From the NCBI GenBank assembly GCA_013376995.1, contig JACAAZ010000008.1, positions 386-64,385 on the forward strand: a stretch of DNA of 64,000 nt, written 5' to 3'. This DNA is from Bacteroidota bacterium (lineage in GTDB: Bacteria > Bacteroidota > Bacteroidia > Bacteroidales > UBA4417). Of the stretch, positions 52,987 to 54,945 are shown one piece after another. The notes below the pieces were generated by a model. That model made no database searches. It saw only the letters and a program-made list of their open reading frames with translations, and was not told the origin of the DNA. Numbering within the stretch: position 1 is the stretch's first letter; every line of letters begins with the position of its first letter. The translations under genes and the position numbers were made by a program.

Positions 52987-54945
52987 TCACCACACAAACT
53001 TTTGGACTGCAGACCGGTCTGGATTCCTGCTTAATACACGCATTAGATATATACCGGTTTTAAATGAACTCATATCAATTTGGGTACTACTACCCGAAAA
53101 CTCTCCCTGTTTCAAGATTCTTCCATCAGCAGAAAGTATCCACCAGCTCTCAGCTGAAGATTCCAGGCTAACATTTAAGACCGAACAAGGCCTGTTACAA
53201 ACAATGCTGAAATGTGTGGTTTGCGTTATAACAGGATAACCATTGGCATGAACATCCCCCATAATGTAAGGATGGGTATCATCGGCAAGGCAAAGCTGGA
53301 GTTTCTCCATACCTGCAATCTGCCTGGGAGCAGAGGACGAACCGGTTGCCGTCTGGGTTGAAAATCCTGCATGGGTTCCAATATTTTTAAGGATCATAAG
53401 CGGGTCAATGCCATACCCTTTAAGGACAGCCTTACCCTCTGAAGGCTCATATTTCATATAGTTCAGGCTGGTAAGCCAGATGCCGAATTTTACCGTATCC
53501 AGCGCCAATGCATACGGAACCGCAGTTGCCGTATTCTCATAAATATCGCTGTTCAGATAGGTATTGGGCATGATCACAGTATTTTTCAACAGCCCAAGGC
53601 CCCCTGAAAAAATCATTTCACCATAATACGAATTCAGGTATGCAAGGTAGTTGTCTACAATGGTCTTCCCGGCCAGCCTGGAATCATCACCTGCAAATGC
53701 CGTCATGCTTCCGTCAGAATGAATTCTCTTACTGAGCACTGTGCCGTTGGAGGTAGTCATGAATTGCATAATCCCGCTGGCATCATTTCCTAGGAACAGG
53801 AATTTAGAGGCCTTGTTGATCTTTGAAAGAACAACTGTATCAGATCCGTTTAAGGAAGTTGGCGCAACACTACCCAATACCGTTGCTCCAAGGTTCGTCA
53901 ATTTGATTTTGAAACTCTCTGCCAGGCTGCTATTTCCGGAAATTATAAGTATTGGATCATTGATATGCCCGGTAGCACTAACAAAGTCCGAAAGCATGGC
54001 AAGGTTTTCATTCAATGCATTGCCACCACTGGCTAATACCGTATAATTGCCCGATTCTGAAAAGGCAGCGGTTTGAATTTCGCGGTTAAGCGGGCTAAAT
54101 GTGGCTTCACCGGTATTGAAATTATAGGTGCAGCCCTGCAAAAGCTGAACAACACTGACAGAATCAACCAGCAGTTTGGTTCCATTCAGGGATGCAGTTC
54201 CTGTGAGCTTATAGATATTGGCACAACCCGTTCCAAAAACAGTTCCCAAATTACTGGTATCGACAGTCATACAGGTAAGATCATCCATTCCAATCCCGGT
54301 AATATTCAACCCTTTGTTGAGGCTGAGATTGGCAAGAAATCCGCAGAGCCTTCCAAAACGGGTTCTCTCAGCAAAGTGTGTATCGAACAGGTAACCCGGC
54401 ATGAAATTAAAAAAATCATTTTCCAGCGTCACATACTGATTATTAGGATTTTCAATGCATTCATAAGAATCCACTGATCCATGTTCTGCTGTGAATACAT
54501 ATGAAGAAAGGATATGCATCCCTGCGGAAGTGCCACAGACGGTGCCTCCCCTGCTGAAAACAAATTCGACAGCTTGCTGAAGCCGGGTTCCTTTATAGAA
54601 GTTGTAATATTCCCATTGATCACCTCCCCTGAAGAAGATTACATCATATGAAACTAGTGAATCATAGATAAACTGGGTGTTGGCGCTATCGCGGGTTGCA
54701 ACATCGAATTCCTTTGCATAAGATGCCTTGCAGTATTGAACAAGGTAAGGAGCAAGTGCACCGGCAGATACAGAAATAACAGCAACCTTTTTTCCTTCAA
54801 CAGCCCAGCGATAAGCCGGAACATTCCAACCGGTTTGATTGTTTTTCTCACCACCGCCACCCACAAGTAATAAACGGCCCCGTTGGCCTGAAACATTTAA
54901 ATTGTAAAGAAAGAAAAGTATAAATAGTGAAATAAGATATTTCAT
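52987..54945 (-). CDS. T9SS-secreted cyanophycinase-like protein (active S51 + degenerate S51 + CTD)
   Basis: LVGGG, FRGGDQ, GTSAG, DTHFAERTRFGRL and GMDD; the second domain lacks Ser/His; C-terminal ILSADGR..IDMS..GIYLM CTD. Confidence 0.82.
   Translation of the reverse strand: MKYLISLFILFFLYNLNVSGQRGRLLLVGGGGEKNNQTGWNVPAYRWAVEGKKVAVISVSAGALAPYLVQYCKASYAKEFDVATRDSANTQFIYDSLVSYDVIFFRGGDQWEYYNFYKGTRLQQAVEFVFSRGGTVCGTSAGMHILSSYVFTAEHGSVDSYECIENPNNQYVTLENDFFNFMPGYLFDTHFAERTRFGRLCGFLANLSLNKGLNITGIGMDDLTCMTVDTSNLGTVFGTGCANIYKLTGTASLNGTKLLVDSVSVVQLLQGCTYNFNTGEATFSPLNREIQTAAFSESGNYTVLASGGNALNENLAMLSDFVSATGHINDPILIISGNSSLAESFKIKLTNLGATVLGSVAPTSLNGSDTVVLSKINKASKFLFLGNDASGIMQFMTTSNGTVLSKRIHSDGSMTAFAGDDSRLAGKTIVDNYLAYLNSYYGEMIFSGGLGLLKNTVIMPNTYLNSDIYENTATAVPYALALDTVKFGIWLTSLNYMKYEPSEGKAVLKGYGIDPLMILKNIGTHAGFSTQTATGSSSAPRQIAGMEKLQLCLADDTHPYIMGDVHANGYPVITQTTHFSIVCNRPCSVLNVSLESSAESWWILSADGRILKQGEFSGSSTQIDMSSFKTGIYLMRVLSRNPDRSAVQKFVW

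Follow-up and report, generated by a model that had tools for sequence, protein, structure and literature searches.

A tandem S51 protein with a T9SS-type C-terminal domain leads a conserved SusC/SusD operon in Bacteroidota and probably serves cyanophycin scavenging

Introduction

Cyanobacteria and many other bacteria have cyanophycin as a major store of nitrogen and carbon. To our knowledge, most of what has been learned about its recycling after the lysis of producing cells comes from a small number of CphE enzymes of the Pseudomonas type. A Bacteroidota genome recovered from a freshwater metagenome carries a gene whose product combines the motifs of a cyanophycinase with an apparent T9SS tail and with a long second half in which those motifs are replaced, and the locus raises two questions: what such a protein would do outside the cell, and what the second half is. 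The analysis below covers the protein, its family and its gene neighborhood. The window is the whole stretch of DNA analyzed (64,000 nucleotides), and all positions refer to it.

Results

Architecture of the tandem-S51 protein

The gene and the parts of its product are located as follows:

52987..54945, minus strand: gene for the tandem-S51 protein, a predicted T9SS cargo (P0001), 652 aa with an ATG start, from the ORF listing and its translation
54886..54945, minus strand: putative Sec (SPI-type) signal peptide, aa 1-20, read from the sequence
54082..54882, minus strand: domain 1 (aa 22-288), S51 cyanophycinase-like, from profile, phmmer and Foldseek matches
54526-54528, 54376-54378 and 54280-54282, minus strand: codons of the domain 1 triad, Ser140, His190 and Asp222, respectively, from the translation
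53251..54063, minus strand: domain 2 (aa 295-565), full-length S51 fold, from hhalign, AlphaFold and Foldseek
52990..53214, minus strand: candidate T9SS type-A C-terminal sorting domain (CTD), aa 578-652, from sub-cut-off HMM matches and a fold match

From the N- to the C-terminus, the protein thus has a predicted signal peptide, domain 1 with its likeness to cyanophycinases, domain 2 with the S51 fold and a T9SS-type CTD. The AlphaFold model of the whole chain has a pTM of 0.78, an indirect hint that the two S51 domains are placed in a defined way. Only eight in-frame codons precede the ATG in the ORF listing. The N-terminus has the typical n-, h- and c-regions of a candidate Sec signal and ends in VSG ahead of Q; read in this way, the signal peptide is MKYLISLFILFFLYNLNVSG, followed by Q, and the predicted mature N-terminus is Gln21. 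Every motif that a preliminary description of this DNA had listed could be located in the translation: GGDQ (107-110), GTSAG (138-142), DTHF-AE-R-T-R-FG-R (188-199) and GMDD (219-222) in the first half, and AGDDS (418-422), GLGLL (449-453), MPNTY (459-463) and WLTS (490-493) in the second. Homologues of equal length number at least 238 at 51-61% identity, and the family comprises 258 clusters (50% identity) at E<=1e-30, ranging over Bacteroidales, Lentimicrobiaceae, Prolixibacteraceae, Saprospiraceae and Cytophagales. A search for RNA runs with the sequence found none, the sole run containing it being the source DNA metagenome.

A first domain with an intact triad

Alignment to the CphB chain 3EN0 shows that the triad of domain 1 is complete, with S140, H190 and D222 at the positions of Ser132, His174 and Glu201. 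Five of the six residues that form the beta-Asp-Arg pocket of CphB are also kept (Q110, D188, R194, R196 and R199, for Gln101, Asp172, Arg178, Arg180 and Arg183, respectively), and the sixth, Gln173, is replaced by T189. Gln173 of CphB is reported to be functionally critical. Conservation was assessed in 135 diverged representatives of the family (27-47% identity), where S140 is found in 128, H190 in 131 and D222 in 119 (with Glu in another 12), and the pocket residues Q110, D188, R194, R196 and R199 in 129, 131, 130, 130 and 132, respectively; overall, the triad and the kept pocket residues are 88-98% conserved. At the position of T189, 82 of the 135 have Thr and 49 have Ser.

The profile scores of domain 1 fall below the family cut-offs, both for TIGR02069 (83.4 bits; cut-off 126.6) and for PF03575 (23.2 bits; cut-off 23.9). 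Among structures in the PDB, phmmer matched domain 1 to 7UQV (E 3e-11) and 3EN0 (E 2e-4), and Foldseek returned the same two for the model of the whole protein (7UQV, E 1.4e-16 and TMt 0.79; 3EN0, E 2e-14). The motifs and the 3EN0 alignment bear out the earlier description of an intact cyanophycinase-like first domain with Asp in place of the usual Glu. Judged from these residues, domain 1 is probably an intact cyanophycinase-type domain and is predicted to be active.

A hidden second S51 domain that has lost its catalytic residues

The second half of the protein is invisible to routine comparison. A BLASTP comparison of the two domains gave no significant match, Pfam found nothing in domain 2 even at E<=1, and an hmmsearch of PDB sequences with a domain-2 profile returned no S51 protein, only chance matches to designed proteins. 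Alignment of the profiles of the two domains with hhalign recovered the relationship, both locally (93.2% probability, E 2.9e-7, 207 columns) and globally (97%, E 1.7e-10), against an E of 0.54 for a control with reversed columns. Modeled alone by AlphaFold, domain 2 has a pLDDT of 90.6 and a pTM of 0.90, and the best 20 matches of this model in the PDB by Foldseek are all S51 structures, with CphB first (7UQW and 3EN0; E 6e-14, TMq 0.71-0.72, TMt 0.75, ~268 columns) at a sequence identity of 13-14%. The preliminary description had made its reading depend on domain 2 adopting an S51 fold, and the predicted fold matches that of CphB at TM 0.71-0.75. Because ordinary sequence searches miss domain 2, its homology is carried entirely by profile-profile and fold comparison. 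At an identity of 13-14%, domain 2 may stem either from an internal duplication or from fusion with a separate S51 lineage.

The profile alignment to domain 1 places the nucleophile position of domain 2 most likely at G419. Across the 135 relatives, Ser plus His at the catalytic positions occurs in none, the His or an Arg pocket is absent in all, and by the same profile alignment domain 2 keeps none of the six pocket residues of CphB. With the nucleophile, the His and the pocket arginines gone, the dead second S51-like domain proposed from the motifs alone stands, with one correction of detail. MPNTY had been thought to replace DQHF, but the profile alignment pairs DTHF of domain 1 with NSDI (465-468), and MPNTY aligns with FMPGY (181-185) of domain 1 and is a retained motif.

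Although its catalytic residues are gone, domain 2 is constrained, with G419 kept in 96%, E470 in 91%, N471 in 93% and R541 in 95% of the 135 relatives. In domain 2, identity to the query is 54% for the close homologues and drops to 29% for the broad set, compared to 25% and 19% for the CTD in the same two sets. These alignments indicate that domain 2 lost its catalytic function as early as the origin of the family and is still under purifying selection. Its role is most likely that of a permanently attached partner replacing the second subunit of dimeric CphB, and it may, putatively, help to hold the polymer. As one chain holds two S51 domains that are homologous to each other, we infer a putative single-chain pseudo-dimer of the CphB kind; any value of the fusion as an adaptation 'suited to T9SS export' is speculative. 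Acinetobacter CphI had been named as a precedent for a fused active and inactive pseudo-dimer, a parallel for which the literature searched gave no support, CphI serving there only as the name of an intracellular cyanophycinase class or gene. The solved cyanophycinase chains among the matches include no tandem and are all 259-291 aa.

Predicted export by the T9SS

The CTD scores below the cut-offs of both models that describe this domain, PF18962 (E 1.3e-4, 22.6 bits; cut-off 27) and TIGR04183 (E 4.3e-4, 20.2 bits; cut-off 23), and is atypical in having CNRP where a PNP motif is usual and W as its last residue. The modeled fold of the CTD matches that of the mirolase CTD (8QB1; TMt 0.71-0.75, probability 1.0), with further matches to DUF3244 and PorZ, and most homologues of the protein have a precomputed PF18962 match. 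The same genome encodes T9SS machinery, with two copies of PorU (1342 and 1263 bits), SprA (2527) and PorV (479), all above cut-offs. The earlier assignment of a T9SS CTD is backed by the fold match and by the T9SS genes, with the HMM scores under both cut-offs.

A conserved operon and its surroundings

The neighboring genes are:

51708..52964, minus strand: CphE-like canonical cyanophycinase (P0002), 418 aa, TIGR02069 at 164.2 bits (cut-off 126.6)
48780..51683, minus strand: SusC-type TonB-dependent transporter with CarboxypepD_reg and Plug domains
47420..48793, minus strand: SusD-family lipoprotein with SusD-like_3 and SusD_RagB domains
46198..47397, minus strand: PKD and beta-propeller lipoprotein with PKD_4, weak NHL/LDL-receptor-B repeats and the lipobox LIAAG followed by C
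55041..56168, plus strand: isoaspartyl (beta-aspartyl) dipeptidase IadA, TIGR01975 at 443.5 bits (cut-off 331)
56165-57766, plus strand: M28 peptidase, from a Pfam/NCBIfam match, as for the four features below
58131-59414, minus strand: T9SS-CTD protein, 427 aa
59552-61153, plus strand: YfcC/DcuC-type carrier
61160-62686, plus strand: M14 carboxypeptidase
62734-63843, plus strand: enolase-superfamily (MR_MLE) enzyme

The tandem-S51 gene opens a tightly spaced and widely conserved operon that continues with the CphE-like, SusC, SusD and PKD lipoprotein genes, separated by gaps of 22-24 bp except for SusC and SusD, which overlap. The CphE-like gene begins 22 bp 3' of the stop codon of the tandem-S51 gene and adjoins it in 13/13 orthologous loci of the same genus; its product has an SPI signal without a CTD and carries GGDQ, GSSAG, DQHF-EARARIGR and GIDE. 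Downstream of the tandem-S51 gene, SusC is found in 43/53 related loci and SusD and the PKD lipoprotein in 45/53 each, with the complete downstream array in 38/53. A co-oriented susC-susD pair is thus kept across genomes together with degrading enzymes, the arrangement that defines a SusC/SusD utilization locus, and the PKD lipoprotein is a candidate surface substrate-binding protein. The IadA gene is divergent, 95 bp from the tandem-S51 gene, and its product is without a signal peptide; 55/67 related loci have a divergent IadA no more than 2.5 kb away. Five loci have SusC directly after the tandem-S51 gene and are without the CphE-like gene; going by gene content, the tandem protein can apparently be the only cyanophycinase at a locus.

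The accessory genes at 56165..63843 are loosely associated, being near the locus in many relatives but not all. Neither CAZymes nor an HTCS or ECF regulator were found in the locus, and the 95-bp divergent region has no exact match to the Bacteroidetes -7 motif (TAnnTTTG), which is not enriched in the window. The cyanophycin synthetase gene cphA1 was not found in the same genome and occurs in only 2/61 relatives. Its absence, combined with the conserved SusCD, CphE-like and IadA context, supports the role in exogenous cyanophycin use that the preliminary description had suggested, as far as gene content can indicate.

Discussion

Taken at about two chances in three, our reading is that the tandem protein is an exported S51 peptidase acting as the cell-surface or extracellular depolymerase of a SusC/SusD-based cyanophycin-scavenging locus. 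The protein would pass the inner membrane through Sec, fold in the periplasm and be exported by the T9SS for release or surface anchoring, where domain 1 would cut cyanophycin from lysed producers. SusCD would take up the fragments, the periplasmic CphE-like enzyme would trim them to beta-Asp-Arg, and the dipeptide would be imported, perhaps via the nearby YfcC-type carrier, and be split to Asp and Arg by cytoplasmic IadA. Canonical cyanophycinases yield dipeptides, for which SusCD would hardly be needed, such that either the products of the tandem protein differ or SusCD serves as a high-affinity capture system. A tentative and, in our judgment, unlikely elaboration is that fusion to the dead domain converted an intracellular cyanophycinase that was dimeric and exo-acting into a surface depolymerase with a single site, which would attack insoluble cyanophycin granules and release oligomers for a dedicated SusCD pair, with domain 2 supplying a polymer-gripping surface or with E470, N471 and R541 joining the cleft. 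If true, SusCD would carry a class of cargo, oligomers of a branched isopeptide polyamide, that is distinct from both glycans and ribosomal peptides.

Whether domain 2 mimics a subunit at all can be questioned, as a remodeled cleft could instead make it a substrate-binding module that grips the polymer or the granule surface and lets the enzyme work on insoluble cyanophycin in a processive or endo-acting manner. We hold this to be possible but somewhat doubtful. The domain is conserved well above the CTD and has the near-invariant polar residues E470, N471 and R541, the SusCD pair implies import of fragments larger than dipeptides, and the design would be analogous to that of ChiA from the chitin locus of Flavobacterium johnsoniae, reportedly a T9SS-secreted two-domain chitinase; yet domain 2 is without the arginines, Asp and Gln that bind substrate in CphB, and across the broad family its invariant residues are mostly glycines and look structural.

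Doubts can also be directed at domain 1. Both S51 domains would be non-hydrolytic if the protein were a pseudo-enzyme displayed by the T9SS as an SGBP-like cyanophycin binder, leaving cleavage to the CphE-like neighbor. The nearest solved relative by sequence, deposited as 'pseudo-CphB' with all motifs kept, the sub-cut-off HMM scores of domain 1, the change of Gln173 to Thr and the canonical cyanophycinase gene immediately downstream would all fit such a protein, but we consider it very improbable: 95-97% of the 135 diverged relatives retain the catalytic Ser, His and Asp/Glu while the truly dead domain 2 has lost all catalytic residues, the tandem protein is the sole S51 gene beside SusCD and IadA at five related loci, and the locus already encodes a separate candidate binding lipoprotein. 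An active domain 1 could alternatively have shifted to another aspartyl or isoaspartyl substrate, such as Lys-rich cyanophycin or poly-Asp-like or Asp-X peptides (PepE-like). Thr or Ser now stands at the position of Gln173, Asp serves as the triad acid in place of Glu, the conserved aromatics W40, Y45, W47 and Y113 are specific to the family and absent from CphB, genes nearby encode a racemase-like enzyme and peptidases of the M14 and M28 families, and the IadA enzymes of cyanophycin clusters have many isoaspartyl dipeptides as substrates (PMC10206079). The conservation of all three pocket arginines, D188 and Q110, the tight linkage to IadA and to a canonical cyanophycinase above its cut-off, and the greater closeness of domain 1 to cyanophycinases than to PepE in both fold and sequence make such a shift quite improbable.

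The proposed cyanophycin depolymerase resembles several known systems in part. CphB of Synechocystis PCC 6803 (3EN0, 7UQW) has the S51 fold common to both domains and shares with domain 1 the nucleophile Ser, the His, the Gln of GGDQ, Asp172, Arg178, Arg180 and Arg183, but it is a single-domain, cytoplasmic protein of ~270 aa reported as a homodimer, whereas the tandem protein joins an active and a dead domain to a signal peptide and a T9SS CTD; CphB also has a triad Glu and Gln173 in place of Asp and Thr, and identity is only 18-20%. The best PDB match of domain 1, in sequence and in fold, is 7UQV ('pseudo-CphB' of Pseudobacteroides cellulosolvens), a single domain of 275 aa without export signals that keeps Gln at the 173 position and the triad Glu. 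According to its depositors, pseudo-CphB reportedly retains the motifs yet is without cyanophycinase activity. The chitin locus of F. johnsoniae (ChiA) and RagAB share the logic of this operon, which pairs SusC/SusD and a surface lipoprotein with a secreted depolymerase and a periplasmic enzyme for the finishing steps, and RagAB is said to be a SusCD-type pair that imports peptides; in these loci the substrate is a glycan or a ribosomal peptide, whereas a branched isopeptide polyamide is proposed here.

The CphE enzymes of Pseudomonas anguilliseptica and P. alcaligenes (~418-419 aa) are described as extracellular and acting on exogenous cyanophycin (PMC3235067, PMC9974463), and environmental cyanophycin is thought to derive from lysed producers (PMC9974463). 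CphE combines a Sec leader, one S51 domain and a short extension at the C-terminus and has no CTD, whereas the protein described here is a tandem with a CTD, and the counterpart of CphE at this locus is the neighboring 418-aa gene and not the tandem-S51 gene. Comparable by description are Salinivirga cyanobacteriivorans and Cyclonatronum proteinivorum (CYPRO_0608), cyanobacteria-scavenging FCB bacteria for which a pair of S51 proteins is reported, one plain and one with a T9SS/Por secretion domain (PMC6243061). The accessible text makes no mention of a second dead S51 domain (PMC6243061), and no biochemical characterization of the Por-tailed S51 proteins of Salinivirga and Cyclonatronum was found in the literature searched.

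T9SS-tailed S51 proteins had already been noted in these two genera, and the tandem-S51 family, like the scavenging gene cluster it belongs to, is widespread and has been described in part. The hidden dead domain accounts for ~270 residues that had no annotation in hundreds of entries in the databases, and the protein offers a concrete test case of a pseudo-enzyme domain supporting a secreted hydrolase. Practical uses may include enzymes for making beta-Asp-Arg dipeptides and markers of nitrogen recycling for blooms and wastewater. For the biology of the group, the analysis suggests that machinery of the PUL style is what Bacteroidota with a T9SS use to harvest cyanophycin in freshwater, sludge and sediments.

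A probably catalytic and a degenerate S51 domain

The open reading frame at 52987..54945 on the minus strand codes for 652 residues, counted from the first ATG of the frame. Its product is conserved and, as judged from its sequence, is probably an active, T9SS-exported enzyme of the cyanophycinase family. All of the motifs named in the preliminary description are present in the translation, with GGDQ (107-110), GTSAG (138-142), DTHFAERTRFGR (188-199), and GMDD (219-222) in domain 1, and AGDDS (418-422), GLGLL (449-453), MPNTY (459-463), and WLTS (490-493) in the second half. The protein was aligned with phmmer to the Synechocystis cyanophycinase CphB (chain 3EN0, with the 20-residue numbering offset of the chain subtracted), and conservation was scored in 135 diverged family representatives, 27-47% identical to the target. 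The residues reportedly critical in CphB (Law et al. 2009) agree with those listed in the preliminary description.

Domain 1 residues, their CphB equivalents, and retention among the 135 representatives
Q110; Gln101; 129
S140; Ser132; 128
D188; Asp172; 131
T189; Gln173; Thr in 82, Ser in 49, Gln in none
H190; His174; 131
R194; Arg178; 130
R196; Arg180; 130
R199; Arg183; 132
D222; Glu201; 119, with Glu in 12 more

Based on this mapping, the triad of domain 1 is Ser-His-Asp, and only one of the six pocket residues is not retained. Domain 1 falls short of the curated cut-offs for TIGR02069 (83.4 vs 126.6 bits) and PF03575 (23.2 vs 23.9 bits), and its top PDB relative is 7UQV, an entry titled 'Pseudobacteroides cellulosolvens pseudo-CphB', a protein that reportedly retains the motifs but showed no cyanophycinase activity. 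Because of these scores and this closest relative, motif retention is suggestive of activity rather than proof of it. Domain 1 (54082-54882) additionally carries five aromatic residues around its GGGxE and GGDQ motifs (W40, Y45, W47, Y67, and Y113) that are 93-99% conserved in the family and absent from CphB; these could make up the interface between the two domains or offer arginine side chains a cation-pi platform.

The S51 character of the second half escapes simpler searches. BLASTP of domain 1 against domain 2 gave no match, Pfam returned nothing for residues 292-570 at E<=1, and an HMM trained on 20 sequences of domain 2 found no S51 protein among PDB sequences. When the 135-representative alignment was split into profiles for domain 1 (22-290) and domain 2 (295-568), hhalign paired the two with a probability of 93.2% in local mode (E 2.9e-7, 207 columns) and 97% in global mode (E 1.7e-10, 233 columns), and with the columns of domain 2 reversed as a control, E was 0.54. 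An AlphaFold2 model of isolated domain 2 (pLDDT 90.6, pTM 0.90) was compared to the PDB with Foldseek, and all 20 matches at E<=0.001 were S51 structures, led by CphB (7UQW and 3EN0; E 6e-14, ~268 columns, TM 0.71-0.75, identity 13-14%) and also including 7UQV, the actinobacterial cyanophycinase-like peptidase 6NQC, and PepE enzymes. Matches beyond S51 were unrelated, with TMq of ~0.3 or lower. In the model of the whole protein (pLDDT 86.6, pTM 0.78) the order of secondary-structure elements is alike in both halves. Profile-profile comparison and predicted structure, two independent sensitive tests, thus bear out the earlier claim of a second S51-like domain, and the observation is confirmed.

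That domain 2 is catalytically dead was also claimed, and this part holds: a Ser near the nucleophile elbow (strand-turn-helix) together with a His at the catalytic position occurs in 0 of the 135 representatives. The elbow places G419, conserved in 96% of representatives, at the position of the serine, and the counterparts of the three pocket arginines are N471 (93% conserved) and variable small residues. The proposed replacement of DQHF by MPNTY does not hold. When the profiles are aligned, the DTHF motif of domain 1 pairs with NSDI (465-468). MPNTY falls opposite the FMPGY of domain 1 and is therefore a remnant common to both domains.

Mean identity to the target is 66% for domain 1, 54% for domain 2, and 25% for the CTD among close homologues, and 40%, 29%, and 19%, respectively, in the broad set. 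By these comparisons domain 2 is clearly still under selection. Its near-invariant residues in the broad set are chiefly glycines, plus E470 (91%), N471 (93%), and R541 (95%), a pattern that does not fit a decaying relic and fits a structural partner bearing a small functional patch. The favoured reading is that domain 2 is a putative permanently attached partner, standing in for the second subunit of the dimeric CphB; alternatively, and still plausibly, it may help to hold the polymer.

Predicted export

The protein begins with what reads as a Sec signal, ending VSG/Q. The last 75 residues match T9SS sorting-domain models below their cut-offs, and the CTD in this subclade has CNRP where a PNP motif is usual and a terminal W. 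The modelled CTD fold matches solved T9SS CTDs (mirolase 8QB1, TMt 0.71-0.75, probability 1.0), as well as DUF3244 and PorZ, and a precomputed PF18962 match is present in most orthologues. The source genome (5.05 Mb, 96.7% complete) has PorU in two paralogous copies along with PorV and SprA, each scoring above its cut-off. Together, the CTD fold, the PF18962 matches, and the machinery make T9SS export well supported as a prediction. The PorU paralogues are both full length (1342 and 1263 bits) and lie in tandem with PorV directly after them (G000:C18:38678-47238, in the source genome); duplication of the T9SS sortase is unusual.

Gene neighbourhood and distribution

Four minus-strand genes (CphE-like, SusC, SusD, and a PKD lipoprotein) follow the tandem S51 gene at 22-24 bp spacing, with the SusD gene overlapping that of SusC. 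An M28 peptidase gene comes after the divergent IadA gene, and the T9SS-CTD protein, carrier, M14 carboxypeptidase, and enolase-superfamily enzyme lie farther out.

46198-47397, minus: lipoprotein with PKD and YWTD/NHL-like beta-propeller (lipobox LIAAG/C), after susD
51708-52964, minus: CphE-like canonical cyanophycinase, 418 residues (TIGR02069 164 bits, over cut-off)
55041-56168, plus: IadA, isoaspartyl dipeptidase, 95 bp upstream of the tandem gene (443 bits; no signal peptide)
58131-59414, minus: 427-residue protein, recognisable solely by a good T9SS CTD
59552-63843, plus: YfcC/DcuC-type carrier, exported M14 carboxypeptidase, and dipeptide-epimerase/OSBS-like enolase-superfamily enzyme, travelling together

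The CphE-like protein resembles CphE in length, has the motifs GGDQ, GSSAG, DQHF-EARARIGR, and GIDE, and carries an SPI signal without a CTD. Past its S51 domain is a ~100-residue extension (~310-418) that matches no family. The 427-residue protein adjoins the locus in ~30 related genomes (48-60% identity) and, given this recurrence, may be a second secreted component. The carrier, M14, and enolase-superfamily group is found near the locus in many relatives, in variable order, and has a putative link to beta-Asp-Arg uptake.

At least 238 proteins are 51-61% identical to the target. At E<=1e-30 there are 258 clusters (50% clustering), and nearly all of the best 150 of these are 640-690 residues long and match across both domains. 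Synteny was compared at 78 loci from species-representative genomes, almost all Bacteroidota MAGs (Bacteroidales, Lentimicrobiaceae, Prolixibacteraceae, Draconibacterium, Saprospiraceae, Cytophagales, and Sphingobacteriia); in two of the loci the label is odd, probably through a binning error. Where at least 9 kb downstream was available, the full CphE-like, SusC, SusD, PKD array occurs in 38 of 53 loci and its SusC, SusD, and PKD portion in 43-45, the lipoprotein itself being kept in 45. SusC directly follows the tandem gene, without the CphE-like gene, in five of the 53, Saprospiraceae included. Three such arrangements (L061, L076, and L082, from Saprospiraceae and a MAG labelled Deltaproteobacteria) retain IadA, SusD, and PKD. 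Among the 67 loci whose upstream sequence is long enough, 55 carry a divergent IadA within 2.5 kb.

Within the window's genus the locus is accessory: 13 of 36 genomes have an orthologue of the tandem gene, with the CphE-like gene adjacent in all 13, and five of the 36 have the CphE-like gene without it. One same-genus orthologue (G009:C2:39668-41608) has a single in-frame TAA, which could reflect pseudogene formation or faulty assembly. In the most closely related genome (L015) the two S51 proteins share only 64% identity with those of the window, compared to 90% for IadA, 90% for MR_MLE, 87% for YfcC, and 78% for SusC; in this comparison the exported enzymes evolve far faster than the other proteins of the locus.

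Proposed pathway and implications

Extracellular cyanophycinases (CphE) are established, as is the idea of scavengers fed by lysed producers (PMC9974463; PMC3235067). The genome comes from a freshwater metagenome, and cyanophycin synthetase is absent from it, the best TIGR02068 score (67 bits) falling on Mur ligases; only two of 61 relatives have the synthetase. Beyond what is observed here, namely the domain layout, the conserved residues, the secretion machinery, the synteny, and the lack of synthesis genes, a pathway can be proposed. The tandem enzyme would leave the cytoplasm via Sec, fold in the periplasm, and cross by the T9SS, and domain 1 would attack cyanophycin set free by the lysis of its producers, at the cell surface or close to it. 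SusCD would capture and import the fragments, possibly assisted by the PKD lipoprotein, a candidate surface cyanophycin-binding protein. The periplasmic CphE-like enzyme would trim these to beta-Asp-Arg, an inner-membrane carrier (candidate, the nearby YfcC-type protein) would import the dipeptide, and cytoplasmic IadA would yield Asp and Arg. Cyanophycin as the substrate, the topology, the product size, and this division of labour are what we infer. The five loci lacking the CphE-like gene lead to the prediction that the tandem enzyme can depolymerise alone.

The preliminary description therefore stands in its observations, the motifs and the second S51 domain, and in part of its interpretation; its precedent, Acinetobacter CphI as a fused active and inactive pseudo-dimer, found no support in the literature searched. 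No description of a dead second S51 domain was found in that literature, and Pfam misses the domain as well. By sequence and synteny, the tandem gene appears to head a SusCD-type locus for scavenging cyanophycin, and loci of this kind have been proposed before in the literature. The value of the finding is in a pseudo-enzyme domain lacking annotation, a cryptic dead twin of its neighbour, and in the testable question it poses of whether SusCD import extends to polyamide oligomers.
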